From Bacilli bacterium (lineage in GTDB: Bacteria > Bacillota_I > Bacilli_A > RFN20 > CAG-826): 64,000 nt of DNA. The notes beneath the pieces are model-generated. The model made no database searches, was not told the DNA's origin, and was given only the letters and a program-made list of their open reading frames with translations. This document shows, piece by piece, positions 1,222 through 62,865 of this stretch. Position numbers and translations under genes: made by a program. The stretch lies in assembly GCA_017534425.1 (NCBI GenBank), contig JAFXWB010000007.1, forward strand, positions 17,550 through 81,549, in the 5' to 3' direction. Each line of letters opens with the position of its first letter. The first letter of the stretch is position 1.

Positions 1222-1695
1222 ATGGTAAATAAAATTGAACTTACAAAAGAAGGCGCAGAAAAGTTAGAAAAAGAACTTCGCCACTTAATTGATATTGATC
1301 GTCCAGAAGTCATCGAAGCTTTACAAGCTGCTCGTTCACAAGGCGACTTAAGCGAAAACGCTGATTATGATGCTGCAAGAACAAAACAAGCAGAAATCGA
1401 AGGCAGAATTAAAGAAATCGAGAATATTCTCGCAAATGTTAAAATCATTTCAGAAAAAACAACCAAATCAAAAGGTGTTGTTCTTGGTTCAAAAGTCACA
1501 ATCAAAGATTTAAGTGATGACACAGTTGAAACTTACACAATTGTTGGAACAGTTGAAGCAAACCCACTTAAAGGTTTAATTTCAAACGTTTCTCCACTTG
1601 GTCGTGCAGTTGTTGACAAAAATATCGGCGACATCGTTTCAGTTCACGCCAACAAAGAGTACAAAGTCGAAATCTTAAATATCGAATATAAATAA
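1222..1695 (+). CDS. greA: Transcription elongation factor GreA
   Basis: 157 aa. Conserved coiled-coil motif GDLSENADYDAAR and a C-terminal FKBP-like domain. GGAG SD upstream. Confidence 0.92.
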   Translation: MVNKIELTKEGAEKLEKELRHLIDIDRPEVIEALQAARSQGDLSENADYDAARTKQAEIEGRIKEIENILANVKIISEKTTKSKGVVLGSKVTIKDLSDDTVETYTIVGTVEANPLKGLISNVSPLGRAVVDKNIGDIVSVHANKEYKVEILNIEYK

Positions 1696-1707
1696 TTTGT
1701 ATTAATC

Positions 1708-1885
1708 ATTAAAGAGGAATCCGAAAGGGTTCCTTTTTTGTTACTTTTATGACCTCTAAAAATATTAAAAAATTTTATTAATTAAAATATTTTAAAAATT
1801 AAGAAAAAACATAATTACTAATTTTAGACGGATATATATAGTGAAGGGGGATAAATTTATGAAATATAAATTATCTAGCAAAGAC
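1708..1885 (+). repeat. Copy A of a ~170-bp duplicated terminator/promoter/SD/start module (partner is 57822..57996, inverted)
   Basis: Direct comparison with the reverse complement of 57822-57996. Shared blocks are a 29-nt identical run (1751-1779), a 13-nt run, and a conserved SD+ATG block. Confidence 0.85.
1715..1740 (+). terminator. Intrinsic terminator of greA
   Basis: aggaatcc-gaaa-gggttcct forms an 8-bp stem with a GAAA loop, followed by TTTTTT. Confidence 0.8.
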
Positions 1886-2035
1886 ATGAAAACTATTATT
1901 ACCGGAGAGATTGCTTTAGCTACAGTTATGGCTATATGCGCGATCGCGCTCATGGCCGTAATAGTATATAAGTTATTTATGTCTAATGAGGGCACTTCTC
2001 AAGTTCCTGGCGGTTGGAAGTTTTCCTGGAAATAA
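1859..2035 (+). CDS. 58-aa single-pass membrane peptide with a C-terminal PGG-WKFSWK tail
   Basis: Strong SD GAAGGGGG lies 8 nt before the ATG at 1859, so the listed start at 1841 is probably too early. It has one hydrophobic helix. Its stop overlaps the radC ATG (TAATG). Confidence 0.55.
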   Translation: MKYKLSSKDMKTIITGEIALATVMAICAIALMAVIVYKLFMSNEGTSQVPGGWKFSWK

Positions 2036-2703
2036 TGAAAATATCTGATATTCCTATTAATTTACGCCCACGCGAGAAGGCATTAATGTATGGAATAGAA
2101 GAACTTTCAGATCAGGAACTTTTAGCTCTCATCATTGGCTCTGGTGGTAGAGGTAATTCTGCCATCGATATAGCTGGAGAGCTACTAAAAACACACGCGA
2201 ACTCAATGGAGTCTCTTTCAAATACGAATTATTGCTCTCTTTTATCGTATCTAGGGCTGAAAAAATCTATTGCTTTGCGCCTTTTAGCGACTTTCGAATT
2301 TAATAGAAGACTTAATACTTATAAGTACAAAAATCCATCCAGAATTGATACCATTCACGATGTCTATTTTCGTTATCAAAATATGGAGAATTTAGACCAT
2401 GAAGAACTGGTAATTTTGATGCTTGATTTGAAGCATAGAATTATTAAAGAAAAAGTACTTTACAAAGGCACTTTTGATTCGTTTGAAATTGATGTTAGAC
2501 AGGTTTTACAAGAGCTTGTTTTAGCTAAAGCTAAATTTTTCTATTTAATTCATAATCATCCGGATGAAGATTCTAGTCCAAGTGATGATGATATCTTGTC
2601 CACAAAAATAGTGGAAAAAGCTTCTAAAAATATGGGAATAAATTTAATTGATCATCTTATTATTTTTAGAGGAGGATTTTCATCTATAAAAATTGAAATT
2701 TGA
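2035..2703 (+). CDS. radC: RadC-like JAB/MPN domain protein
   Basis: N-terminal LRPREK..G...LSD.ELLA helix-hairpin-helix region and JAMM motif HNHPDEDSSPSDDD. The start is taken at MKISDIP (2035), overlapping the upstream stop. Confidence 0.88.
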   Translation: MKISDIPINLRPREKALMYGIEELSDQELLALIIGSGGRGNSAIDIAGELLKTHANSMESLSNTNYCSLLSYLGLKKSIALRLLATFEFNRRLNTYKYKNPSRIDTIHDVYFRYQNMENLDHEELVILMLDLKHRIIKEKVLYKGTFDSFEIDVRQVLQELVLAKAKFFYLIHNHPDEDSSPSDDDILSTKIVEKASKNMGINLIDHLIIFRGGFSSIKIEI

Positions 2704-6686: not shown

Positions 6687-7671
6687 AGATAAACATGAAT
6701 CTGAAGAACAAATTGAACAATCTCTTCGTCCTTTATATTTAAAGGACTATGTCGGCCAAGAAAACCTTAAAAATAACCTCAAAATCTTTATTGGAGCTGC
6801 AAAAGCAAGGGAGGAAGTTCTTGATCATGTCTTATTTTATGGTCCGCCTGGTTTAGGTAAAACAACACTTGCCTATATCATTGCAAACGAGATGGGCGGA
6901 AATATTAAATTGGTGAATGGCCCATCAATTGAAAGGCCTGGAGATTTAGCTTCGGTTTTATCAACTTTAGAGCCGGGAGACATTCTTTTTATCGATGAAA
7001 TTCATCGTCTTCCAAGCATGGTTGAAGAAATACTTTACGAGGCAATGGAGGACTTTAAACTTAATTTAATTGTTTCTAAAGAAACAAGTGCATCAACAAT
7101 TTGTATTGAACTACCGCCATTTACACTTGTTGGAGCTACGACAAAAGCTGGTGTTTTATCTCCTCCACTTAGGGCAAGATTTGGTATCTCTGAAAGAATC
7201 AATTATTACACTGAAGATGAACTAACAAAAATAGTCAAAAGAACCGCAAATTATTTTAATTCAACAATCGATGACATGTCTGCTCACGAAATAGCTAAAA
7301 GATCTAGAGGAACACCAAGAATTGCAAATCGAATTTTTAGAAGAGTTAGGGACTTTGCTAACTATCGTGATTCAAGCGAAATAAAACTAAATGAAACTAG
7401 GGAAGCTTTAGACGCACTTCGTATTGATGATATTGGTTTAGATGAAGTTGACATTAGGTACCTTTTGACTCTAAAAAATAGGTTTGGCGGTGGACCTGTT
7501 GGACTAGAAACAATCGCTTCTGCAATTGGCGAAGACGCATCAAATCTAGAAGAAGTCTACGAACCATATTTACTAAAAATTGCTTTTATCGATCGAACAC
7601 AAAAAGGGAGAATCTTGACTAGTAAAGGAAGGGCTCATTTGAAGACTCTTAAAGACATATTTACTTTGTAA
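6667..7671 (+). CDS. ruvB: Holliday junction DNA helicase RuvB
   Basis: LRP..L.DY.GQ, Walker A GPPGLGKTT, and DEIHRL. Confidence 0.95.
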   Translation: MPRLADKDKHESEEQIEQSLRPLYLKDYVGQENLKNNLKIFIGAAKAREEVLDHVLFYGPPGLGKTTLAYIIANEMGGNIKLVNGPSIERPGDLASVLSTLEPGDILFIDEIHRLPSMVEEILYEAMEDFKLNLIVSKETSASTICIELPPFTLVGATTKAGVLSPPLRARFGISERINYYTEDELTKIVKRTANYFNSTIDDMSAHEIAKRSRGTPRIANRIFRRVRDFANYRDSSEIKLNETREALDALRIDDIGLDEVDIRYLLTLKNRFGGGPVGLETIASAIGEDASNLEEVYEPYLLKIAFIDRTQKGRILTSKGRAHLKTLKDIFTL

Positions 7672-7847
7672 ATAAAAGTCTAATTTCGTATTATAATGCG
7701 ATATGCTTTTCTTTTCATTAATGAAAAATTTTCTATATATATGTCTAATGGGTAAAATAATACTTTCTTTACTTATAAAGTAATAAGTAGTAAAATCTTA
7801 CGCGACATCAAAAATTCATATTTATTACATAAAAAGGAAAAATCATT

Positions 7848-10532
7848 ATGCGTCGATTAATAGCTTATATTACAACCGCAATAGCAATGCTACTTGCAAT
7901 TGGAGTTGCCGCTACTCCAGTTATAACAAAACTAAATAACGGTCGTGAATTCACCAGTGGTAAGAGTTATAGAGAACTCGTTTTTAACATTGCCGAAGGT
8001 GATAATGAAGAAGAAAATGCTAACAGAGCCTCAACAGTCGCAGAACAAATGCGTGAGAGATTAAATAGTTACAACGTTGAAGACTATTCAATCAAAATCC
8101 AAGGCGAAGACACAATTGCTGTCGCTCTTGATATGGATAGCAAAGAATTCAATTATTGTGCAAAATATCTCACATTCTCCGGTGAAAGCTTTGCTTTAGT
8201 TTCTTCAAACGGCACTTCAGTTCGTAATGAACACAAACTTTTCAACGCAGATGATGTCAGAATTGATTATAAAGGCGACGCAAATATTCCAGTAGTCATC
8301 ATCCCAGTTACAGATGAAGGAAAACAAGACATCAAAGATCTTTGTAAAGAATTCGAAACTGAAGATAATGACGATAACAAATCAATTATCCGCCGTGGTG
8401 CAATGGAAGTTTCCGCAGACGGTGAAGAAGAAAGCGAAGAAACCCCAAGCAATTATCTTTATCTTTGGGCTAACTTTGATGAAGGAAAAGGCGAAAGTTT
8501 AGAATCACTTAATAAAGATCCAATCGCAAGAGAAAAAGTCTTAATGGCATTCAATCCAGAATCAATCTGGTACGAAGATTCAAAAGAAGCAGAAACTGAA
8601 ATCTTCTATATGTGTGCTACAGCCGAACAAGATAATCCAAACCAATTAGATATCTCCGGTTTAAAGGATGATAACGCAAGAGCCAACTATTTAGTTGGAC
8701 TTCTTAAAGCAAGCGCATATAAATTTGAAGTTAGCTGTCCAACAGTTAGCGTTTCTGAAACAACAATGACTGTTGATTATTTCACAAATGCTAGAGTTTT
8801 ATCAGCTTCCGCCGAATCACTTTTAAGCTTAGGTAATAACGTTAACATTAAGTTAACATCCAAGACATTTATTGCTGTTGCAATCGCTGTTGTAATTGTT
8901 TCATTACTTTTAATCGTTTACTATCGTTTAAGTGCTCTTGCAATTATTGCAACTTCTCTTGGAACACTCTTTATTACTTTAGTTTCATTCACCTCAATGC
9001 ACGTTTTATTCAATATTCCAGCAGTTATTGGATTTATTATCCTTTCCGCTGGTGTGTTATTTGGTGAAATCGCATATGTTAACCGTTTCAAAGAAGAAGT
9101 CTACAAAGGACGTACAATTAAGAAAGCTAACCAAGAAGCAAGCAAGAAAACCAACCTTATCACAATTGATTCCGGTATTATCTTAGCCTTCTCCGGCTTA
9201 ATGATGTATGCCCTTGGTGGAACAGCCCTTAAACCATTAGGTGTTGTTCTCTTCTTTGGTGCAGTATTCACCTTGTTAATGAACTTACTTGTCTTCAAAC
9301 TTTTGATGTATCTTGTAACAAATTCAACCAATTTACAACAAAAGCACAATGTATTTAACATTGATGGTGAAAAAGTGCCAAATATTATGGCAGTAGAAGA
9401 AAAACAAACTTACGAAGCTCCATATGAGAAAGTTGATTTCACAAAGAGAAAAGGAATCGTCTCCATTATCTTCGGTGTTTTATCAGCAGCTGCAGTTGCA
9501 TGTATTGTCGTATTTAGTGTTATGTCACCAACAAAATCACCACTCAATGTTGAAAAGGCCGTTAGTGATACAACTGTAATTTACACATCAGTTAAAGCTG
9601 ATAACGATAATCCACTTATTTCTGACGCATCTTCATATGTTCAATATGTCTTAAAAGACACAGATTATGCTTCAGTTAAAGGAATTGAAGATCAAGTCGA
9701 ATTTAAGAAAGTTTCTAAATATGTTTACGAAAGTGAAGAAAACCAAGAAACTCAAGAATATTATTTCTTTACATTAAATGTAAATGAAAAATTAAGCGAA
9801 GAACAACGTAGTGCACTTGAAGAAACACTCAATCAAAATTTGATTGATGTTATGCCATCAAATGAACTTACATATTCCGCAGTTAGAAATTCTCAAGAAT
9901 TAATCTATACACCAAGCCAAGGTTATGTTGCTTTAGCAACAGGTATCTCAATCGTTGGTATTGCATTATACTTTGCATTTAGATTCCGCCCATCAAGAGG
10001 ACTTTCTGTCCTTCTTGTCACTACTGGCACAACCGCAATTGCCTATGGTGTCATGGTTGGAATGAGATTCATTGGTACAACTGCTATTACTTCCCTTGCA
10101 ATGCCAGTTGTTGCTGTTACTATGATGCTTGCATCATTATTCTATCTCTCGACTGAGAAAACAATGCTTAAAGAAGGCAAATTCGAGCTTACTAAAGAAG
10201 TTAGAAAAGAAACAATGGTTAAAGCTATTGGCAAATCTGCATCTGCTATGTTTGCATTCATGCTTATTAACATTTATGTTATCATCAACTTCTTCGGATT
10301 TGGTGTCGAAAACACAGCTCTCTTATTTGCTTCCGCAATGATCGGTGAAGTCGTTGCAGTTATCGCACTTCTTTGTGTCACTGGTCCACTTGCTGGCGCA
10401 TTTGAAAGATTATTCTCCAAGATTCATCTTCCAAAGATTAAATGGTTTAATAAAGATAACAAACCAAGACAAGCCGCAAGACGTAATTCAAGCGAACCAG
10501 AAGAAACAATCTTCATCGGTATTAACGACTAA
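7848..10532 (+). CDS. secDF: Fused protein-export membrane protein SecDF (divergent, long acidic extracytoplasmic regions)
   Basis: Contains two RND-like 6-TM modules, each preceded by a large hydrophilic domain. It follows ruvAB, as in Bacillus. Confidence 0.75.
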   Translation: MRRLIAYITTAIAMLLAIGVAATPVITKLNNGREFTSGKSYRELVFNIAEGDNEEENANRASTVAEQMRERLNSYNVEDYSIKIQGEDTIAVALDMDSKEFNYCAKYLTFSGESFALVSSNGTSVRNEHKLFNADDVRIDYKGDANIPVVIIPVTDEGKQDIKDLCKEFETEDNDDNKSIIRRGAMEVSADGEEESEETPSNYLYLWANFDEGKGESLESLNKDPIAREKVLMAFNPESIWYEDSKEAETEIFYMCATAEQDNPNQLDISGLKDDNARANYLVGLLKASAYKFEVSCPTVSVSETTMTVDYFTNARVLSASAESLLSLGNNVNIKLTSKTFIAVAIAVVIVSLLLIVYYRLSALAIIATSLGTLFITLVSFTSMHVLFNIPAVIGFIILSAGVLFGEIAYVNRFKEEVYKGRTIKKANQEASKKTNLITIDSGIILAFSGLMMYALGGTALKPLGVVLFFGAVFTLLMNLLVFKLLMYLVTNSTNLQQKHNVFNIDGEKVPNIMAVEEKQTYEAPYEKVDFTKRKGIVSIIFGVLSAAAVACIVVFSVMSPTKSPLNVEKAVSDTTVIYTSVKADNDNPLISDASSYVQYVLKDTDYASVKGIEDQVEFKKVSKYVYESEENQETQEYYFFTLNVNEKLSEEQRSALEETLNQNLIDVMPSNELTYSAVRNSQELIYTPSQGYVALATGISIVGIALYFAFRFRPSRGLSVLLVTTGTTAIAYGVMVGMRFIGTTAITSLAMPVVAVTMMLASLFYLSTEKTMLKEGKFELTKEVRKETMVKAIGKSASAMFAFMLINIYVIINFFGFGVENTALLFASAMIGEVVAVIALLCVTGPLAGAFERLFSKIHLPKIKWFNKDNKPRQAARRNSSEPEETIFIGIND

Positions 10533-24920: not shown

Positions 24921-24958
24921 AGTTAGAATTCATTAATAGTAGATAATTAGTAGTTTAT
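24921..24958 (+). repeat. TAGTAG element copy 1 (core 24937-24958)
   Basis: agttagaattcattaaTAGTAGATAATTAGTAGTTTAT lies between the xseB stop and the dxs ATG. Confidence 0.7.
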
Positions 24959-24964
24959 TAGTAT

Positions 24965-26921: not shown

Positions 26922-28130
26922 ATGAGTAAAATCATCCTTCATATTGATCTCAATGCCTTTTTTGTGAGATGCGAAGAACTCAAAGATCCTACACTTGAAG
27001 GCAAACCAGTTATTATCGGAAAAGTCGGTCGTGGTGGTATTGTTTCAACTTGTTCATATGAAGCAAGAAAGTATGGTGTTCGTTCAGGAATGCCAACTTA
27101 TGAAGCTTTGCTTAAATGTAAAGACGCAATAGTTTTGGAATCAGATTTTCACTTTTATCATGAAAAATCGACACAATTCTTTGCTTTTTTAAAGAACTAC
27201 ACTAATTTGATTGAACCAGCATCAGTTGATGAATGCTTTGCGGACTTTACAAATGTTCTTAAAAATGAAAAAGAACCGCTTGTTTTCTTAAGAAACATGC
27301 AGAAAGAACTTTATAAAGAGACAGGTCTTAAGTGTTCAATTGGTGTTGCACCTACTAAATTTCTCGCGAAAATGGCGTCTGATATGAAAAAGCCTTTAGG
27401 CTTAGTTGTTATTCGTAAAAGAGACGCAAAGAAAATATTAGCGCCTTTAGCAATTGAAGATTTCTTTGGAATCGGCAAGAAAACTGCCCCACATTTAAGA
27501 GAACTTGGCATAAATACAATCGGTGATTTAATTAAGCGAATTGATGAAGAAGATCCTGTAATTAAGGAAGTTCTTGGTAAATTTTACTTTGTAATAAGCG
27601 ATTGGATTAACGGAAAAGGCGATGACGAAATTAATACTGAACCATTTGATCCGAAATCTATAGGCCACTCTACAACACTATTTAGTGACGCTCTTTCAGT
27701 TGAGGAACTAGAGAAACCTTTAAGAGAATTATCAGAAGAAGTAGCAAGGGATGCTCAAAAGAGAGGCAAGAAAGGAAAAACTGTTCAACTTGTCTTAAAA
27801 GACAACGAATTCAAAATTATTAATAGGTCCAGGAGACTCGGCCAACTTTCTAACAGTTTTGATGACATTTTCAAAACGGCATTGGAGCTTCTAAAAGAAA
27901 ACTATAACGGAAAACCGACTCGTTTAATTGGCGTTACACTCCAACAACTTCAAAATCCTAAGGAAACTTATGAGCAATTATCAATTTTTGATAATTATGA
28001 ACAAATTAAGGAAGAAAACGAGACGAGACTTCTCATCGGAGATTTAAATAGACAAATGCATAAATCAGTGTTTAAAACAGCCGCTGATCATTTAAGGGAG
28101 TCAGGAAATGACACTAAAAGAGGCAGCTGA
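26922..28130 (+). CDS. dinB: DNA polymerase IV (Y-family)
   Basis: HIDLNAFF, SVDE.F.D, and the C-terminal little-finger region. Confidence 0.9.
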   Translation: MSKIILHIDLNAFFVRCEELKDPTLEGKPVIIGKVGRGGIVSTCSYEARKYGVRSGMPTYEALLKCKDAIVLESDFHFYHEKSTQFFAFLKNYTNLIEPASVDECFADFTNVLKNEKEPLVFLRNMQKELYKETGLKCSIGVAPTKFLAKMASDMKKPLGLVVIRKRDAKKILAPLAIEDFFGIGKKTAPHLRELGINTIGDLIKRIDEEDPVIKEVLGKFYFVISDWINGKGDDEINTEPFDPKSIGHSTTLFSDALSVEELEKPLRELSEEVARDAQKRGKKGKTVQLVLKDNEFKIINRSRRLGQLSNSFDDIFKTALELLKENYNGKPTRLIGVTLQQLQNPKETYEQLSIFDNYEQIKEENETRLLIGDLNRQMHKSVFKTAADHLRESGNDTKRGS

Positions 28131-28986
28131 TTTATACTTTCAATACCTGAGAGTAGAAAAAGGTGTTTCTAATGAAACAATTCGTAACTATGATTACGAT
28201 TTAAAGATCTTTTTCGAAACCTTAAATAAGAAAACAACTAATGATTTGAAATCGGGAGATATCCAAGAATTCATTAGAATTCAAACTCAAAATATGCTCT
28301 CAATTCCAACAATTTTACGAAGAATTTCATCAACTAAGAATTTTTACCTTTTCTTAGAAAAGGAGCGAATTATTACTTTTCAAATCGATTCATTAGAAAA
28401 ACCAAAAGGCGCTAAAAAACTGCCTGTTTGTATCTCATTTGAAGAAGTAGAAGCTTTGCTTGAACAGCCAGATTTAAATAAACCTGAAGGTCAAAGAGAT
28501 AGAGCAATGCTTGAAGTTATGTATTCTTCGGGACTCAGAATCAGCGAGCTCCTCAACTTAAGAATGAATCAAATAAATTTTGAAAGAGGAATGGTTAAAA
28601 TCATTGGTAAAGGGAACAAAGAAAGAATCGTTCCTGTTGGCGATTATGCCTTGGAATACTTAGATAAGTATATTAATGATGGAAGAAGGAAAAATCATAA
28701 GAGAAATTCGGATTTCTTGTTCTTAAATCGTTATGGAGAGCCTGTTTCGAGAGTTTATTTCTTCTTACAGGTTAAAAAATATGCTGAACAAGCTGGTATT
28801 CAAGTAGAAATATCACCTCATACATTAAGACATTGCTTTGCAACTCATATGTTAGAAAATGGTGCAGAACTTAGAGCGGTGCAAGAAATGCTAGGGCACA
28901 CAAACATAGCGACAACTCAGATTTACACGAACATTTCAAGCAAGCGTATTCTTAGTGCATATGATTTGTATAGCAAACGGAAATAA
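28108..28986 (+). CDS. xerD: Tyrosine recombinase XerD/XerC family
   Basis: N-terminal SAM-like domain. Catalytic RISE...HTLRH.FATH...LGH..I.TTQIYT with the terminal Tyr. Adjacent to deoB, as ripX is in Bacillus. Confidence 0.75.
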   Translation: MTLKEAADLYFQYLRVEKGVSNETIRNYDYDLKIFFETLNKKTTNDLKSGDIQEFIRIQTQNMLSIPTILRRISSTKNFYLFLEKERIITFQIDSLEKPKGAKKLPVCISFEEVEALLEQPDLNKPEGQRDRAMLEVMYSSGLRISELLNLRMNQINFERGMVKIIGKGNKERIVPVGDYALEYLDKYINDGRRKNHKRNSDFLFLNRYGEPVSRVYFFLQVKKYAEQAGIQVEISPHTLRHCFATHMLENGAELRAVQEMLGHTNIATTQIYTNISSKRILSAYDLYSKRK

Positions 28987-32563: not shown

Positions 32564-32610
32564 TGTAGAATTAAGGTCAATTAGTAGATATTTAGTAGTT
32601 TTATCAAGTA
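32564..32610 (+). repeat. TAGTAG element copy 2 (core 32582-32604)
   Basis: tgtagaattaaggtcaatTAGTAGATATTTAGTAGTTTTAT lies immediately after the permease stop. Confidence 0.7.
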
Positions 32611-32659: not shown

Positions 32660-32752
32660 AATTTAAATTATTTCGATGTATTCTTTCTTTTTTGTTATTT
32701 GGTTAACATAATAGACATTATGCGAAGTTGTTATATAATTAAAAAGATCAAA

Positions 32753-35627: not shown

Positions 35628-38255
35628 TCAGAAATCCTCATCATCGTCGAAGATTGAAATTTGAGTGTATCCTTTTTCTGGAATATCTTCTTCCTTCGTT
35701 GAAGGAACTTCATTTACTTTTTCAACTTCTTGGGCTGACTCTTGTTGAACAACTGGAACTTCGATCATATGAGAAACGGTTTTGGCAAGAATTCTATCTT
35801 TTCCTTCAATAAATGGAATATCAAGTCTATTTTTCTTACCTAAATCAATTGAATCATGGCAATAATAGTCCATTGGAGTCAAATGATAATCAGTAATTGT
35901 GATTTCTTTAACTTCCTTCATATTGGTAAGTAATCTAACTAAGTTAGATTCTTCGCTTGTATCTAACTTGAAGGCATAAACCAATTTATGTTCATCAGAT
36001 TTGAATGATTTAAACACCTGTGAAGTCTTGCCTAATCTAGTCACTAAATTGGTCTTATCTGGGTCATAAATTCTGACAGCTCCTTTGTCGGTAATTAAAG
36101 CCACTTTTCCAGAATAATTACCCGTTGGGTAAGCTAGTAAGTTTACAACCTCGGCATGACCTAATTTTGAGATGCCTTTTACACCGCCACTTCTCATACC
36201 TGCATTTGGTAGTTCATTTTCGTTATAGAAGGTGGCATTTCCGTCACTTGTAAATAGCATCAAATCACTATTTCCGTCAGTAAATGCAACATCAACGACT
36301 TCATCATCTTGAAGAAGCTTCATACAGATGAGTGCCTTTGAATAACGAATTACTGAGAAGTTATCTAAAGATAAACGCTTAATTTGTCCATGTTTTGTAA
36401 CAAGTACGAAGAATAAGTCGTTTCTAAATTTTTCTATCGCATACACACGCACTATTTTTTCATTAGGATTTAAATTAATTTTAAAATTGATGTGTTTTCC
36501 TTCATCTTTCCATTTTCCATTTGGAAGTTCATAAACTGGAATATAAAGGAAGTTACCTAAGTTAGTAAAACTGACTAAATAGTCGGTTGACATACAATTT
36601 CCAGCAAAAATACATACGTCTCCATCTTTTAAACCTGGAAGTGGTTTTTCTCCACTACTTGCATATGATTTAATAGTTGATTGTTTGAAGTAACCATCAC
36701 GAGAAACTGCAACCACAACTTCCTCTTTTGCGATGAGGTCACGGACGTCAATTTGCTTGCTTTCTTCCTTCTCGATAATTTGTGTTTTTCTGTCGTGTCC
36801 GTACTTGTCAGAAATAGCCTTCAAATCTTTAATCAAAAGACGGTTTAATTTGGCTCTATCCGAGAGAATTCCATTAAGAAAATCGATGTTCTCTTCAAGG
36901 CCTTTTTTCTCGTTCTCCAAAGTCGTAATATCGGTGTTAGACAACTTATAAAGTTGTAACATAACAATTGCTTCACTTTGTTCCTCTGAAAATCCAAACT
37001 TATTTTGAAGGTTTTTCTTGGCATCTTGTTTGTCTTTTGAAGCGCGGATTACGGCCACAACTTCGTCTACAATTGAGATGGCTTTTATAAGGCCATTTAC
37101 GATGCTCAAACGACTCTTAGATTTGGCTAAATCGAAGGTTGATCTACGGGTAATTACATCAACTTGATGGTTGATATATGAGTCAACAAAATCGAGCAAA
37201 TTCATGGTCTTTGGAGAGCCGTTTACAATGGCTACCATGTTGGCAGAATAGCTCATTTTTAGGCCAGATTTTGTCATCAAATATTTGTAAATTACGTCAA
37301 TTTTTGCTTCTTTTTTGATTTCAATTACAATTCTAATTCCATTTCTATCTGACTCATCACGAACTTCAGCGATACCTGGTAAAACATTGTTATGTTTTAG
37401 CATGTCGATTTCATGAACAAGAGCAATTTTTTGAGCTTTATAAGGAATTTCGGTAACAATGATAGATTTTTCCTTGTTATTGTCGATAATCTCCGCTTTT
37501 GCAGCGATTTCGATACGTCCTCTACCCTCTAAATACATGTCTTGGAGGCCTTTTGAAGTGTAAATAATTCCCCCACTTGGGAAGTCTGGACCTTTGATAA
37601 ATTCCATCAAATCTAAAGGCTCAACTCGAGCATGATTTATGCGGTAAATTATTGCATCAATAACCTCTCTGAGGTTATGTGTAGGAATATCTGTTGCCAT
37701 ACCGACCGCAATTCCCTCGGTTCCATTAACTAGTAAATTTGGGAAGCGAGAAGGTAAGACAACAGGCTCAAATTGAGAGTCATCAAAGGTAAGCGCCATA
37801 TCAACTGTATTTTTGTCGATATCTCGCACCATTTCTTCGGCAATTTGGCTTAATCTTGACTCTGTATAACGGTATGCAGCAGGTACGTCACCATCAATTG
37901 AACCATTATTTCCCTGGAAATCGATAAGTGGATTATTTAATTTCCAATCTTGAGACATTCTTACTAATGCCTCATAGATTGAGGAGTCACCATGTGGGTG
38001 GTATTCACCCATGACAGCACCAACTGTATGGGCACATTTTCTTGTTGGACGAGTGAAAATATTGCCATCTTTGTACATAGCAAAAATGATACGACGTTGA
38101 ACTGGTTTTAGTCCGTCTCTTGCATCTGGAATTGCACGATCTTGGATGACATATTTTGCGTAAGTTGCAAAACGGGTACCCATGATTTCTTCAAGGGTTT
38201 CGGAGTGAATATTTTCAACGATTTCTACTTCTGGAGTAATAGCTTTTCTGGCCAT
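35628..38255 (-). CDS. parC: DNA topoisomerase IV subunit A, with acidic C-terminal tail
   Basis: DGLKPVQRRI, HPHGDSSIY.ALVRMSQDWK and AAYRYTESRL are ParC-like rather than GyrA-like. It is also in a plsY-parE-parC arrangement. Confidence 0.8.
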   Translation of the reverse strand: MARKAITPEVEIVENIHSETLEEIMGTRFATYAKYVIQDRAIPDARDGLKPVQRRIIFAMYKDGNIFTRPTRKCAHTVGAVMGEYHPHGDSSIYEALVRMSQDWKLNNPLIDFQGNNGSIDGDVPAAYRYTESRLSQIAEEMVRDIDKNTVDMALTFDDSQFEPVVLPSRFPNLLVNGTEGIAVGMATDIPTHNLREVIDAIIYRINHARVEPLDLMEFIKGPDFPSGGIIYTSKGLQDMYLEGRGRIEIAAKAEIIDNNKEKSIIVTEIPYKAQKIALVHEIDMLKHNNVLPGIAEVRDESDRNGIRIVIEIKKEAKIDVIYKYLMTKSGLKMSYSANMVAIVNGSPKTMNLLDFVDSYINHQVDVITRRSTFDLAKSKSRLSIVNGLIKAISIVDEVVAVIRASKDKQDAKKNLQNKFGFSEEQSEAIVMLQLYKLSNTDITTLENEKKGLEENIDFLNGILSDRAKLNRLLIKDLKAISDKYGHDRKTQIIEKEESKQIDVRDLIAKEEVVVAVSRDGYFKQSTIKSYASSGEKPLPGLKDGDVCIFAGNCMSTDYLVSFTNLGNFLYIPVYELPNGKWKDEGKHINFKINLNPNEKIVRVYAIEKFRNDLFFVLVTKHGQIKRLSLDNFSVIRYSKALICMKLLQDDEVVDVAFTDGNSDLMLFTSDGNATFYNENELPNAGMRSGGVKGISKLGHAEVVNLLAYPTGNYSGKVALITDKGAVRIYDPDKTNLVTRLGKTSQVFKSFKSDEHKLVYAFKLDTSEESNLVRLLTNMKEVKEITITDYHLTPMDYYCHDSIDLGKKNRLDIPFIEGKDRILAKTVSHMIEVPVVQQESAQEVEKVNEVPSTKEEDIPEKGYTQISIFDDDEDF

Positions 38256-38256
38256 T

Positions 38257-40200
38257 TTACTTCACCTCCTCAATAAAGGAGTCAACTTCGTTGAAGTTAA
38301 TATTTTCTTCGATCCATTGACGTCTAGTTTGTGGGTCATTACCCATAAGGGTAATAAGTCTTTGTTCTGCGAGCAAAGAATCCTCAATTGTAACCTTCAA
38401 AAGTTGTCTAGTTTTTGGGTCCATTGTTGATTCTCTGAGTTGATCATCATTCATTTCACCAAGGCCTTTGTAACGGTTAACTTTGCAACCTGCACCGATA
38501 CGTTTTTTAGCCTCATCTAAACCTTCATCATCCCACGCATATTCGTAAACTTGTTTGTGATTAACTTCCTTGTAAATTCTGTATAAAGGAGGCATTGCAA
38601 CAAACAATTTTCCTTTCAAAATGAGTGGTTTCATGAAGTTATAAAAGAAAGTGATAAGTAATGTTTGAATATGAGCACCATCAGTATCAGCATCAGTCAT
38701 AATAATAACTTTCCCATAATGGGAATTATCGGCATTAAATGTCTCTTTTACGCCTGCTCCGATGGTATTAATTAATGTTGCACATTCTTCATTTTTAAGA
38801 ACTTTGTCGATAGGAAGGCCAAAAGTGTTTAGTGGTTTACCACGAAGTGGTAATATGGCTTGATGTATTCTATCACGGCTCTTTTTCGCTGTTCCACCCG
38901 CAGAATCACCCTCAACTATGAAAAGTTCGTTCTTATCATAGTCTTTCGAGGCTGCAGGTGTTAACTTATCAGACAAGACTATGTCTTGTTTGATAGTTTT
39001 TCTAGAACGCATCTCATCACGGACTTTTCTAGCTGCAATTCTGGTGTTTTGAGCGTCTAAACACTTCTTAATTACTGTGACTGCAAATTCCTTGTGTTCA
39101 GCAAGATAATAACTTAGGTTATTATAAATAAAGTTAGTAATTATTGGTAAAGCTTCAGGTGTACCTAATTTTTGCTTGGTTTGACCCTCATATTCGAGCT
39201 TTTCTTCAGGTATTTTTAGGGAAATAATTGCGGTTAAACCTTCACGAATATCCCCACCTTCTAACTTATTTTTACCCTTAATTAGGCCATTTTCTTCAGC
39301 ATAATCGTTAATTGCTTTGGTTAATCCTGCTCTAAAACCTTGCTCATGAGTACCACCATCTCTAGTACGTACATTATTTGCATATGAGTAAATATTCTCA
39401 CCATAATCTTGAGCAGCCCATTGCATTGCTATATCTATAGATATAGAATCTTCTTTTCCTTCAAAAGAAATAATGTCTCCAATAATGTTTTTGTCATGTT
39501 CAAGAGAGCTTATATATTCCTTTATACCGTCTTTATAACAAAACTCGACTTTTTCTCCACTTCTTTCATCAGTTAGTAAGAATTTTACGCCTTTTAAAAG
39601 GAAGGCACTTTCCTGAATATGTGAGGAAATAATGTCAAATTTAAAATCGGTTGTTGAGAAGATTCTAGAGTCTGGTTTGAAGCGGACAAGTGTACCTCTC
39701 TTCTTGGTGTTACCAAGAACTTCAAGAGGAGTAACGAGTTTTCCGCCATTTTCAAATCTAATGTGATAAATCGATCCAGACTTAAAAACAGTAACATCAC
39801 AGTATTCGGATAAGGCATTTGTGACTGCGGAACCAACACCATGAAGACCAGCAGATGATTGATAAGCTTTATTAGAAAACTTGCCGCCAGAATGTAGTGT
39901 TGTAAAGATTAATTGGACAGCAGGCATATGAGTCTGTTGATGAATATCAACAGGAATTCCTCTTCCTTCGTCTTCAACACTTAAAGAACCATCTTTGTGA
40001 ATAGTAATTCTGATGGTTTCTCCATAGCCATTTAAAGCCTCATCAACAGCATTATCAATGATTTCCCACACCAAATGATGGACACCATTTAAGTTGGTAG
40101 ATCCGATATACATTGCAGGTCTTTTTCTGACGCCAGCAAGGCCTTCTAAAAGCTCAATATCTGCCGATGTATATGATGATTTTGCTGTAATTTCTGACAT
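38257..40200 (-). CDS. parE: DNA topoisomerase IV subunit B
   Basis: GHKL ATPase N-terminus (LEGL..VRKRP.MYIG), Toprim EGDSAGG and PLRGK. Adjacent to parC and divergent from plsY. Confidence 0.8.
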   Translation of the reverse strand: MSEITAKSSYTSADIELLEGLAGVRKRPAMYIGSTNLNGVHHLVWEIIDNAVDEALNGYGETIRITIHKDGSLSVEDEGRGIPVDIHQQTHMPAVQLIFTTLHSGGKFSNKAYQSSAGLHGVGSAVTNALSEYCDVTVFKSGSIYHIRFENGGKLVTPLEVLGNTKKRGTLVRFKPDSRIFSTTDFKFDIISSHIQESAFLLKGVKFLLTDERSGEKVEFCYKDGIKEYISSLEHDKNIIGDIISFEGKEDSISIDIAMQWAAQDYGENIYSYANNVRTRDGGTHEQGFRAGLTKAINDYAEENGLIKGKNKLEGGDIREGLTAIISLKIPEEKLEYEGQTKQKLGTPEALPIITNFIYNNLSYYLAEHKEFAVTVIKKCLDAQNTRIAARKVRDEMRSRKTIKQDIVLSDKLTPAASKDYDKNELFIVEGDSAGGTAKKSRDRIHQAILPLRGKPLNTFGLPIDKVLKNEECATLINTIGAGVKETFNADNSHYGKVIIMTDADTDGAHIQTLLITFFYNFMKPLILKGKLFVAMPPLYRIYKEVNHKQVYEYAWDDEGLDEAKKRIGAGCKVNRYKGLGEMNDDQLRESTMDPKTRQLLKVTIEDSLLAEQRLITLMGNDPQTRRQWIEENINFNEVDSFIEEVK

Positions 40201-41060: not shown

Positions 41061-41100
41061 CTGTAAAATTTAGTAGAAAATTAGTAGTTTTATTTACTGT
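41061..41100 (+). repeat. TAGTAG element copy 3 (core 41071-41093)
   Basis: ctgtaaaattTAGTAGAAAATTAGTAGTTTTAT begins a few nt after the plsY stop. Confidence 0.7.
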
Positions 41101-56632: not shown

Positions 56633-56675
56633 ATTCTTAAGGAAAAGTATTATATCATACTTTCACTTCAAATAT

Positions 56676-57848
56676 CTATAAATTACATGAATCGAAGAAT
56701 CTACGTTCGATTTTGGCATTTTCTTTCCTAAAGGAAAGGTTATTTAACAACTGATTGTAAGAAACAAACCCTGCATAATACATTACAAAGTGGAAAATAA
56801 CAAAGTTACATCCAATGTTTTGTGTCACAAACATCATCGCTACTGCAAAAGCAAAAGACAAAAAGATGTAAAAGATTTCTTTTATTCCTTCTTTAAACAT
56901 TAGTTTATCAGCCTTGAAGCTTGCCTCGATCGCCAAATCTTTTACTGAACTAGCATCTTTAAATGCTTGATTTTCAAGTTCGCCTATACGATTTTTAGTT
57001 TCTTCACCACTTTTTGAAAACATGATTAATTCTAGGAGTTTAAATAAAATTAAAGCTAATAGAACAAACACATTTCTAAAATCATTGAAGCAAAGCAAAA
57101 ATGTAACAGTAAACGCTAATAAAATCGATGCCAAAGTTTGACGATTGCAGGTGAAAAATTGTTTTTTAAATTCATTAAATTGAATGTACTTATCTTTAGT
57201 ACAATTTTTCTTTAATTCAAAGTATTTTGGAATATACTCCTTATCAAAAGTATAAACAAGTTTATAAAGAATACATTTTTCTGCTATTTGAGTGCACACA
57301 AACAGAACTAGAAATGCCAATGAAAATAAGAAGTTTTCACTCTTGTTGAGTAGATAAAAAGCCGCAATTAATAGACCTGCCGAAAATAGAGAAACTAATG
57401 AACTGAGTAAATTTAGTTTTGGAGAAATAACATGTTGTCTATATTTCTCAATTTTAATTACATTTTCAGGATTTTCTGCCTCCAGTACAACACATCTCCA
57501 TCTTCTTAAAAACTCATCTTTCTTCATTTTTACTACACCACGACCAGGGTCATAAATGATAAGACTCTTTTTCTTTCTTTTCTTCACCATAACAACGTGG
57601 TTATCGTCAATTAGAGTTAAAGATGGAGTTTTAATACAATCGAAATATTCTTTTGTGCAACCGCTTCCTTCTAAAGTTACTCCATAAGTTTTACTTATTT
57701 GCACTAAATCATCGAGACTATAATATTCGCGCTTAGTGGGCTTAGGAATAAAAAGATATGATTTGTCTTTAGCAAGTGTAGCCAAAAGCATTTTTAGTGA
57801 GGCAAAACCACAATCATGATCGTTGCCTTGATAGATAAAGTACTTCAT
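56676..57848 (-). CDS. C39 peptidase domain fused to a ~6-TM PCAT-like membrane domain, no ABC ATPase domain
   Basis: The start is taken at the ATG at 57848, 8 nt after SD GAAGGGGG. The catalytic set Q7/C13 (YQGNDHDCGFASLKMLL), His (DDNHVVMV) and Asp 16 residues later (IIYDPGRG) is present. Hydrophobic helices follow to the C-terminus at 390 aa. No Walker motifs. Confidence 0.75.
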   Translation of the reverse strand: MKYFIYQGNDHDCGFASLKMLLATLAKDKSYLFIPKPTKREYYSLDDLVQISKTYGVTLEGSGCTKEYFDCIKTPSLTLIDDNHVVMVKKRKKKSLIIYDPGRGVVKMKKDEFLRRWRCVVLEAENPENVIKIEKYRQHVISPKLNLLSSLVSLFSAGLLIAAFYLLNKSENFLFSLAFLVLFVCTQIAEKCILYKLVYTFDKEYIPKYFELKKNCTKDKYIQFNEFKKQFFTCNRQTLASILLAFTVTFLLCFNDFRNVFVLLALILFKLLELIMFSKSGEETKNRIGELENQAFKDASSVKDLAIEASFKADKLMFKEGIKEIFYIFLSFAFAVAMMFVTQNIGCNFVIFHFVMYYAGFVSYNQLLNNLSFRKENAKIERRFFDSCNL

Positions 57849-57996
57849 AAATACTTCCCCCTTCACTATATCTATCCACCCAAAAAATGACTTTCTGCTA
57901 TTTTGACCTTGTTTAAAATATTTTATAAATAAAATTTTTTAATATTTTTAGAGGTCGTAAAAAACAAAAAAGAACCATTTCAGATTCCTCTAGTTT
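57822..57996 (-). repeat. Copy B of the duplicated terminator/promoter/SD/start module (partner is 1708..1885)
   Basis: The reverse complement aligns with 1708-1885. The 29-nt identical run is at 57928-57956. Confidence 0.85.
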
Positions 57997-58102
57997 AATT
58001 GGTCAAATTATTTCATATTACATCTTGTTAATTTTTCTAGGACAATCTTAGAAATAAAGGTGTTTAATATTTCATTAAATATTGCTAAAATGATTAGTAA
58101 TT

Positions 58103-60436: not shown

Positions 60437-60610
60437 TTAGTAAGTTTTACGACGAGCCATCTCTGATTTGCGTTTTCTCTTCAAACCTTTTTTGAGATAG
60501 AATTCTCTTTTACGTGCTTCAAGAAGAACACCGGATTTGTTGACTTGTCTTTTGAAACGACGAAGAGCTTCGTCTAATTGTTCATTTTCTCTAACGACAA
60601 TTTTTGGCAT
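60437..60610 (-). CDS. rpsU: 30S ribosomal protein S21 (below the ORF-track length cutoff)
   Basis: Manual minus-strand translation gives [65 protein letters not shown] lies upstream. Confidence 0.9.
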
Positions 60611-61617: not shown

Positions 61618-62865
61618 TTATCGAACTTTTATTTTGTGAATTTTGCCAATATATTCATCAGGTAAGTCAGCCTCTAATTTTATATAATTAGATGTGAATC
61701 CGCTTAAGAGACCTGTAGTTTTATTTCTTTCCTCAAGGATGACTTCAAGTTCTTGTCCTTTGAATCTATTTACATAATTTTTATGTAATTCTTCAGAAAG
61801 CTTAATAAGCTTATCAACACGAGCGGCTTTAACTTCTGGTTTTACTTGATCCGGCATTGAGTACGCCTTTGTTCCTTCACGAGCGCTAAACGGGAACACA
61901 TGTAATTCAGCAAAATTGACTTTTTTAATGAAATCATAGGTCTCTTGGAACTCTTCTTCGGTCTCTCCAGGGAAACCAACGATAACATCAGTCGTTATAG
62001 AGATATTTGGTAGAATTTTAGTAATTTTATTAACTTTGTTAATATAATCTTCAACGTTATATTTTCGACACATTCTTTTTAAGACTGTTTTTGAACCACT
62101 TTGAAGAGGCATGTGAAGGTGCTGAGCAATACATGGATACTTTGCCAACAATTCTAAGAACTTGTCATCAATTTCACTCTCTTCAATTGAGGAAATTCTT
62201 AGTCTATATAATCCAGGGATATTACATATCTCCTCAACTAATTCAGAAAAAGAACAACCTTTATTATCAAGCCCATAATGAGCTGTATGAATTCCGGTTA
62301 ATACAATCTCTTTGAATCCATGTTCTACTAGAGTAGAAATTTCATTGATTACTTCATCTTTGTCTCTTGAACGAGCGACTCCACGTGTGTAGGGAATTGT
62401 GCAATATGAACAAAAATTGTTGCAGCCATCCTCGATTTTTACATACGCACGTGTAGAATTTGGAATTGCTACTGTTCCGAAAGATTCATATTTAAATTTT
62501 CTAGGATCTTCATCAATGGCAACAATTTGTTTTTTATCTTTGATAAACTCTTTAATAAAATCGACAATTTTGTTTCTATTGGATGTTCCAACGACAATAT
62601 CAGCACTACATTCTTTCTTAACGTATTCAGCATTCTTTTGCGAATAGCAACCCATAACGCATAAAATTGCGTTAGGCGCATTTCTACGCTCCCTACGTAT
62701 AATTTGACGTGATTTCTGATCTGCGACTGCCGTCACTGAACAAGTATTAATTACGACAATGTCGTATTCTCCATCCTCTTTTATTCCGTTTTTTAAAAAG
62801 AGCTCCTTAAGAGCATTGCTTTCATATGAGTTGACTTTACAGCCAAGAGATATAAATTTAAGCAT
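61618..62865 (-). CDS. mtaB: Radical-SAM methylthiotransferase, MtaB (YqeV) type
   Basis: UPF0004 N-domain (LGCKVN..ES), radical SAM CNNFCSYC and a TRAM-like C-terminus. Adjacent to rsmE, as yqeV is. Confidence 0.8.
   Translation of the reverse strand: MLKFISLGCKVNSYESNALKELFLKNGIKEDGEYDIVVINTCSVTAVADQKSRQIIRRERRNAPNAILCVMGCYSQKNAEYVKKECSADIVVGTSNRNKIVDFIKEFIKDKKQIVAIDEDPRKFKYESFGTVAIPNSTRAYVKIEDGCNNFCSYCTIPYTRGVARSRDKDEVINEISTLVEHGFKEIVLTGIHTAHYGLDNKGCSFSELVEEICNIPGLYRLRISSIEESEIDDKFLELLAKYPCIAQHLHMPLQSGSKTVLKRMCRKYNVEDYINKVNKITKILPNISITTDVIVGFPGETEEEFQETYDFIKKVNFAELHVFPFSAREGTKAYSMPDQVKPEVKAARVDKLIKLSEELHKNYVNRFKGQELEVILEERNKTTGLLSGFTSNYIKLEADLPDEYIGKIHKIKVR

Follow-up and report, generated by a model that had tools for sequence, protein, structure and literature searches.

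Inverted chromosomal duplicates are known to evolve in concert through gene conversion, as do tufA/tufB in Salmonella and Escherichia coli and the rrn operons. The other described systems closest to the locus presented here are the peptidase-containing ATP-binding cassette (ABC) transporters (PCATs), among them PCAT1, ComA and LahT, and the double-glycine leader peptides, which form the substrate class of C39 peptidases and share the published leader motif LSXXELXXIXGG (PMC1538908). Here, we analyze a stretch of 64,000 nucleotides (nt) from a Bacilli bacterium (contig JAFXWB010000007.1, positions 17,550 to 81,549; hereafter, the window), in which one ~200-bp segment is present in two inverted copies 56 kb apart: copy A lies between greA and a 58-codon small open reading frame (sORF) that precedes radC, and copy B lies upstream of a gene for a C39 peptidase protein (the C39 gene). 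On balance, we favor the reading that the two copies are paralogous 5' control regions, in which a shared promoter/operator would co-express a leader peptide with the peptidase that likely processes it, and which gene conversion would keep alike. Both genes are core genes of a clade of uncultured gut/rumen Bacilli, and our claims on these bacteria have comparative sequence evidence as their basis.

Reading and aligning both regions revealed that window 1685-1885 (+) matches 57822-58019 (-) collinearly, so that the two form an inverted repeat of ~200 nt (Table 1). The initial annotation of this DNA had listed a series of shared blocks over ~170 bp, every one of which was recovered by MAFFT alignment of 1650-1950 (+) with the reverse complement of 57760-58060; the repeat itself is real but slightly longer than had been claimed, as homology reaches upstream to AATAT(G)AAATAATTTG (1685-1699 and 58004-58019), which in copy A represents the last greA codons and stop. 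Likewise, copy B carries AATATGAAATAATTTG, a match to the greA stop region of copy A. More specifically, the 29-mer GACCTCTAAAAATATTAAAAAATTTTATT and the Shine-Dalgarno (SD) block GGATANATATAGTGAAGGGGGA each occur exactly twice in the window, once per copy and in opposite orientations, and shuffled sequences are expected to yield neither of them even with 3 mismatches allowed (100 shuffles for the 29-mer). A repeat search returned the copy A/copy B pair as the longest inverted repeat of the window (131 nt ungapped, 74%), and local alignment of the 200-nt upstream regions gave a score of 154, relative to a shuffle maximum of 41. The ~35-nt center of the module had been described as unrelated between the copies; in copy B, however, this center shares homology with sequence upstream of the sORF in a close relative (locus L020), and it is thus diverged rather than foreign. 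At the other end of the repeat (1859-1885 versus 57822-57848), both proteins open with MKY (ATG-AAR-TAY) throughout the main clade, and the TTATCTA that follows is common to both genes, although each reads it in a frame of its own (KLS versus FIY). This shared start and frame-shifted heptamer suggest that ancestral duplication or conversion tracts extend into the first codons.

An nhmmer profile built from relatives only, with the window sequences left out, matched copy A at 1739-1861 (E 1.1e-10) and copy B at 57846-57966 (E 4.7e-13), the next best match in the window having an E value of 0.2. Across ~190 kb of related loci, the same profile matched solely directly upstream of the sORF and the C39 gene. 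The two-copy count covers the 64-kb window and these ~190 kb, and neither the repeat search nor the profile detected terminal repeats or target duplications around the two copies. The module is accordingly no generic dispersed repeat, an option that had been considered at the outset: the window has just two copies, and in the related loci every copy stands before one of these two genes. A scan with the core motif GACCTCTAAAAANATNANAAAATTTT, covering 185,579 species genomes, yielded a single unrelated match, in a member of the Bacteroidales. In this metagenome-assembled genome (L019), ACGACCTCTAAAAATATTACAAAATTTT at 4167-4192 matches the module core with 1 mismatch; we take it as a chance match, because its flanks are unrelated and ~0.3 chance matches are expected.

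The gene contexts of the two regions are constant among relatives. Wherever the upstream flank could be read, the sORF was preceded by greA (46/46 loci) and the C39 gene by rpsU or by a SpoIIE module (12/12 loci), and two other species carry both genes on one contig, ~57-58 kb from each other and convergent as they are in the window (L014/L013, contig of 110.5 kb; L017/L016, contig of 432.9 kb). In the three single-contig genomes, the sORF and C39 upstream regions of one genome aligned with scores of 154, 101 and 84, whereas cross-locus comparisons between genomes scored 21-31 and orthologous comparisons 24-31, except for one of 50 that included the greA coding end; the within-genome pairs were the top 3 of the 9 cross-locus comparisons. 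In all three genomes, then, paralogous upstream regions are more alike than orthologous ones. Lineage-matched pairs from different samples behaved similarly, scoring 164 (C39 locus L012 with sORF locus L026), 97 (L010/L042) and 80 (L007/L024) relative to an all-pairs median of 38. The stretch that is shared differs by lineage: it comprises the terminator hairpin and T/A tract in L016/L017 (G3), ~55 nt abutting the SD in L013/L014 (G2), ~95 near-identical nt in L012/L026, and two blocks around a diverged center in the window. Because paralogues exceed orthologues in likeness, with mosaic tract limits specific to each lineage, as independent conversion tracts would leave them, the two upstream regions evolve in concert, most likely by repeated gene conversion. 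In the window lineage, at least one tract probably ran from A to B, as copy B holds the remnant of the greA stop region and a decaying hairpin.

To describe the module, we aligned 25 upstream regions (20 sORF loci and 5 C39 loci), which follow one collinear plan without indels. A terminator is followed by an A-rich tract, often with ACCTCTAAAAA, and then by a palindrome, (G)ATTTA[C/T]-N3-[G/A]TAAAT(C), an A-run and a TTAACA-like box; next come a ATGCGATTTT-ACCC(C) box, an invariant GA(T), a TATA-like hexamer (TATAGT in the window), the SD and the ATG. The TATA-like box abuts the strong SD, and the start reads ATG-AAR-TAY. A GC-containing stem with a T-run at a gene 3' end, as befits an intrinsic terminator, is found in copy A, where the hairpin is strong, but not in copy B, whose stem is weak and before whose hairpin no co-directional gene ends in the window genome. 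The initial annotation had called the hairpin the working greA terminator in copy A and one that follows no gene in copy B, which is correct for the window; in relatives that lack the SpoIIE insertion (L007, L010 and L016), equivalent hairpins terminate rpsU. A sigma-70 consensus scan of both copies found nothing above shuffle expectation inside the module, and the consensus sequences of SigB, SigD/sigma-28, extracytoplasmic function (ECF) sigma factors, SigH and sigma-54 did not fit it. By hand, three mutually incompatible promoter placements could be made (a TTAACA-type box; ATGCGA-N16/17-TATAGT; and a palindrome half-site as the -35), among which spacing cannot choose, because the whole region is collinear without indels. 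As regards RNA structure, the module had no Rfam match at the gathering score, RNAalifold predicted 0 pairs over 22 sequences, and the leader folded no better than shuffles (z -0.2 to -0.9). We therefore rejected a structured RNA leader or riboswitch and regard the module as a DNA-level control sequence. Some relatives could form an anti-SD hairpin, with CCCCU paired to GGGGG, but the window lacks it, and we rejected it as a general feature.

The 58-codon ORF is a real gene: the identical protein was called on 13 contigs, and the family counts 156 close homologues, at least 545 members by profile search, and 59 clusters at 50% identity. Conserved in it are a 16-residue N-terminus that always ends in Gly, a single hydrophobic helix and, at the C-terminus, a nearly invariant PGG[WF]KFxW. 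Among 127 unique sequences, the N-terminus resembles the double-glycine leader motif outside position -2, with L at -12 (120/127), S/T at -11 (121/127), D/E at -8 (107/127), M/A/C/L at -7 (117/127), I/V at -4 (125/127) and G at -1 (127/127). Position -2 of the wider family is Gly in about a third of aligned members and otherwise V, P, T, S or A, and true Gly-Gly leaders occur in many of them (e.g., MRKLNDEELAKISGG|E and MKRQLNKEELNAICGG|A, in which the bar marks the predicted cut). One or two distant members had sub-threshold matches to PF10439 (0.0011) and TIGR01847 (0.011). The sORF stop overlaps the radC start codon (TAATG), and the two are translationally coupled. In every locus with enough flank, the neighbors are greA (or valS) and radC, with no adjacent transporter, immunity or regulatory gene, and radC is 3' of the sORF in every locus that extends past its stop, including a distant lineage with valS instead of greA. 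In that lineage (L060-L063; sORF at 8001-8177), the sORF has the canonical GG leader MTLLTNAEMANIKGG|E and lies 42 nt after valS and directly before radC-rplU-prp-rpmA...obg, an order that resembles a reduced form of the B. subtilis order valS...radC...rplU-rpmA-obg.

The C39 domain of the second gene product matched PF03412 (E 2.8e-17), and its Q7, C13 and H84 do not vary among 45 homologues of 29-98% identity, while conservation of D100 is at least 90%. Its AlphaFold2 model (pLDDT 86) has long helices over residues 143-387, and the best Foldseek matches were PCAT1 chains, covering both the peptidase and the membrane domain (E 2.5e-14, TMq 0.60) and including the substrate-bound form, followed by other ABC exporters. 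Of the features that define a PCAT, the N-terminal C39 domain with its catalytic Cys and His and its oxyanion Gln and the six-helix membrane domain are present, and the C-terminal ATP-binding cassette is not: Pfam gave no ABC_tran match in the 390 residues, and the NCBIfam peptidase-ABC transporter match is partial (profile positions 2-295 of 673). We found 124 homologues, nearly all full-length ones being 390 amino acids (aa) long, and no exact match to the protein is on record. The gene is set in an rpsU...dnaG-rpoD neighborhood; it is followed by ybeY in the window as in all related loci, without an ABC ATPase gene beside it. In literature searches, neither PCAT relatives lacking the ATPase nor the sORF peptide family turned out to be described.

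According to the reading that we favor, the same transcription factor or polymerase input would act on both copies, such that peptide and peptidase are made together, and the C39 peptidase would remove the 16-residue leader of the sORF product by cutting after Thr-Gly16. Co-regulation is suggested because related bacteria likewise keep both upstream copies alike, and the link between the two genes is probably meaningful, because the sORF encodes a leader of the type that C39 peptidases process. This agrees with the proposal, made in the initial annotation, of a shared regulatory architecture linking the two genes, which is supported by the double-glycine-type leader and by the recurrence of the similar-upstream pairing in other species. 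Recurrent, patchy gene conversion between the inverted repeats on either side of dif would keep the regions alike in each genome, and in the window lineage the A-to-B tract would have brought the greA stop region and terminator along as passengers. More tentatively, and with clearly less confidence, we consider a housekeeping, non-bacteriocin double-glycine/C39 system, in which an ATPase-less PCAT relative would mature, and perhaps insert or flip, a micropeptide encoded upstream of radC, and repeated gene conversion of their promoter regions would hold the two genes, unlinked and separated by the terminus, in regulatory lock-step. Such a micropeptide is widely conserved, its gene having a fixed place before radC in numerous uncultured Bacilli and 'Tenericutes'-type lineages.

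Several observations weigh against co-expression of a substrate and its peptidase. The best -10-like hexamer, TATAGT, is so near the SD that transcripts initiated from it would lack this site. Both loci are on one contig in three genomes only. The leader has Thr at -2 in 126/127 clade sequences, whereas characterized substrates have Gly, Ala or Ser, and the window sORF matched no curated bacteriocin or leader model (NCBIfam at E<=10, Pfam at E<=1), its sole Pfam match being Syndecan (E 0.02, below that family's cut-off). Family-wide, the sORF is tied to radC and not to the peptidase, including in the valS lineage, which has no room for the module. In addition, ybeY has its own extended -10, TGATATAAT (56633-56675), just downstream of the C39 stop. 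Because of this element, the C39 gene may be transcribed on its own and not head a ybeY-era-recO operon, with copy B driving it alone.

The main rival to a substrate-peptidase link, possible though in our estimate unlikely, is a generic one: the module would be a strong housekeeping promoter and ribosome-binding site of two unrelated core operons, and the sORF product would work with RadC and not be a C39 substrate. Coupled translation of sORF and radC everywhere, module or not, fits this explanation, as do the neighborhood of the C39 gene and the Thr at -2 of the leader. However, the module precedes these two genes only in the 64 kb and 190 kb of loci covered, the remaining window genes use different promoter and SD contexts, and a conserved GG-type leader needs a cognate peptidase, for which the sole C39 protein in the window and related loci is this one. 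Somewhat less probable is that likeness has been kept purely by selection on regulator binding sites that co-evolve with their regulator, without any exchange of DNA. The palindrome, GAT box and SD are indeed common across the clade, and in the window the center between the boxes is locus-specific; but identity crosses spacers, both stems and loops of the terminator, and a remnant of greA coding sequence, functionless at locus B; tract limits vary by lineage; and L012 and L026 are nearly identical over ~95 nt.

A neutral accident without regulatory meaning, in which the greA-sORF intergenic region was duplicated once, recently and in this species alone, with the copy placed before the C39 gene, would explain why copy B has a greA 3' remnant and a decaying terminator that follows no gene, and the identical 29-nt run suggests recent exchange. 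It is largely refuted, and we rate it as very improbable, given that the same architecture precedes the C39 gene in relatives down to ~60% protein identity, and that two other single-contig species have a species-specific similarity of their own. Least credible of all is a mobile or dispersed element (such as a miniature inverted-repeat transposable element), a structured RNA leader or riboswitch, or a recombination site of an invertible 56-kb segment, to which we assign hardly any weight. Such elements are brought to mind by the inverted arrangement, the hairpin and an IS3-family insertion into the hairpin loop in some strains, but they are contradicted by the presence of two copies only, without terminal repeats or target duplications, by the single chance match among the scanned species genomes, by the RNA results described above, and by flanks that are invariant in all 58 loci with readable upstream sequence. 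None of these loci shows the inverted arrangement, and the 56-kb inversion that the initial annotation had envisaged is thus not supported. Its idea of a copied, portable cassette survives in altered form: sequence would have been exchanged between two old paralogous regions, but the unit is not mobile, as the profile finds two copies in the window and, in ~190 kb of related loci, copies only before these genes. Thus, we return to paralogous control regions kept alike by gene conversion as the favored reading.

Table 1. Features of the two copies and their surroundings, in window coordinates
Feature	Position	Strand	Details
Copy A, shared 5' region	1685..1885	+	Last greA codons, terminator, A-tract, palindrome-like box, TATA-like box/SD, ATG and ~25 nt of coding sequence, in this order
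Copy B, shared 5' region, upstream of the C39 gene	57822..58019	-	Includes a remnant like the greA 3' end
29-nt run identical between copies	1751..1779, partner 57928-57956 (-)	+	A-tract and left part of palindrome-like box
greA intrinsic terminator hairpin and T-run	1711..1738	+	Terminator scan; fold -15.3 kcal/mol, z -3.9
Degenerate hairpin, copy B	57968..57991	-	Fold -9.3 kcal/mol, z -1.4; not called by terminator scan
Palindrome-like box, degenerate TTTTATTAATTAAAA; candidate operator	1773..1787	+	Alignment of 25 upstream regions; putative function
Copy B equivalent of palindrome, TTTTATTTATAAAA	57921-57934	-	Degenerate form
GAT box, TATAGT (-10-like) and SD GAAGGGGGA within GGATATATATAGTGAAGGGGGA	1830..1851, partner 57856-57877 (-)	+	Promoter assignment ambiguous
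greA, upstream neighbor of copy A	1222..1695	+	Pfam
sORF, 58 aa	1859..2035	+	Leader residues 1-16 MKYKLSSKDMKTIITG, predicted cut before E17; one transmembrane helix; conserved C-terminal VPGGWKFSWK
radC (UPF0758_N and RadC JAB domain)	2035..2703	+	Pfam; synteny
dif-like 28-mer GGTTAACATAATAGACATTATGCGAAGT	32701..32728	.	At GC-skew/gene-orientation switch; found by reading the region
C39 peptidase (aa 3-126) and six-helix ABC-exporter-type membrane domain, no nucleotide-binding domain	56676..57848	-	390 aa
SpoIIE-type phosphatase, RsbW-like kinase and STAS protein, divergent from C39 gene	58103..60374	+	Separates rpsU from copy B
rpsU	60437-60610	-	Beyond SpoIIE module

With respect to the chromosome, the GC skew changes sign and the genes change orientation at ~32.6 kb, where we found a dif-like 28-mer, presumably akin to the dif sites of E. 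coli and B. subtilis; a search of the window with a B. subtilis-type dif pattern gave no match. Genes for a XerD-like recombinase and for topoisomerase IV (parE/parC) are near this site (28108-28986 and 35628-40200). Because the dif-like site coincides with the switch and is accompanied by these genes, the window spans the replication terminus, and copies A and B, 30.9 and 25.2 kb from the site and on either side of it, are on opposite replichores. An inversion between the copies would be nearly symmetric about the terminus. A 24-nt family, TTAGTAGATATTTAGTAGTTTTAT (TAGTAG-N6-TAGTAG), is present four times in the window (24936-24959, 32581-32604, 41070-41093 and 62007-62030), with one copy just upstream of dxs and one beside the dif-like site.

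The SpoIIE/RsbW/STAS partner-switching module next to copy B has no adjacent sigma factor gene. It also lies between rpsU and the C39 gene in L012 and L013 and is absent in L007, L010, L011, L016, L057 and L058, a distribution that does not follow C39 protein identity. At the other locus, an IS3-family element (~1.24 kb, with an rve integrase and a 100-aa ORF) interrupts the hairpin loop of the greA terminator in some strains (L002-L004 and L021-L023); the insertion point corresponds to about window 1724-1727, and a 4-nt junction overlap suggests target duplication. The palindrome ATTTAYNNNRTAAAT has 11 matches in the window versus 3.9 expected, and none in the module itself; as this excess is marginal (reached by 1/100 shuffles) and no match falls inside the module, no regulon can be claimed from it. 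A perfect ATTTACTTTGTAAAT is found at the ruvB stop (7659-7673) and a one-mismatch copy in the ruvB-secDF intergenic region (7820-7834), both being of the same type as the palindrome in the relatives' modules. Elsewhere in the window, obg, relA/spoT, ispG, a haloacid dehalogenase (HAD) hydrolase gene and others (4034, 15469, 35516, 43202, among others) have a TATAAT 7-12 nt before the ATG and no SD, which suggests that leaderless or very short-leader mRNAs are frequent in this organism.

If the favored reading is true, this locus would be a clear bacterial case in which the non-coding control regions of two non-homologous genes evolve in concert, and such concerted control regions would offer a way of detecting co-regulated partners that are not neighbors from genome sequence alone. 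The locus also nominates a substrate for an uncharacterized class of ATPase-less C39/exporter-fold proteins, and adds a new, widespread family of leader-bearing membrane micropeptides tied to radC, a gene of still unclear function. Concerted evolution of duplicates, PCAT/C39 systems and GG-leader peptides are each of a kind already known; what is unreported is their combination.

Compared with the known systems, tufA/tufB and the rrn operons resemble the module in being inverted copies tens of kb or more apart that are more alike within a genome than between species. In contrast, the unit here is ~100-200 bp of non-coding sequence before two non-homologous genes, with short mosaic tracts and no inversion isomers seen. 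The C39 protein shares with PCAT1, ComA and LahT the N-terminal C39 domain with its Gln/Cys/His/Asp set and the six-helix exporter-type membrane domain, but it ends at residue 390 without a nucleotide-binding domain, no ABC ATPase gene is adjacent, and its gene is conserved, single-copy and set in a housekeeping neighborhood, not in a bacteriocin or competence island. FapD, the stand-alone C39 protein of the Fap amyloid system, likewise represents C39 chemistry outside a complete ABC transporter, but lacks the exporter-type membrane domain, and the NCBIfam match to it is weak (E 2.5e-4, 20 bits versus a cut-off of 330). Finally, the sORF product has in common with double-glycine precursors (class II bacteriocins, ComC and BlpC) a 15-16-residue leader with conserved -12, -11, -8, -7, -4 and -1 positions, a true GG in many family members, and a predicted cut immediately before the hydrophobic mature part. 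It differs from them in that this mature part is a conserved membrane helix with a PGG[WF]KFxW tail and not a variable toxin or pheromone, in the Thr at -2 in the clade, in its fixed position beside radC with no transporter, immunity or two-component genes near, and in having its putative peptidase gene 56 kb away.

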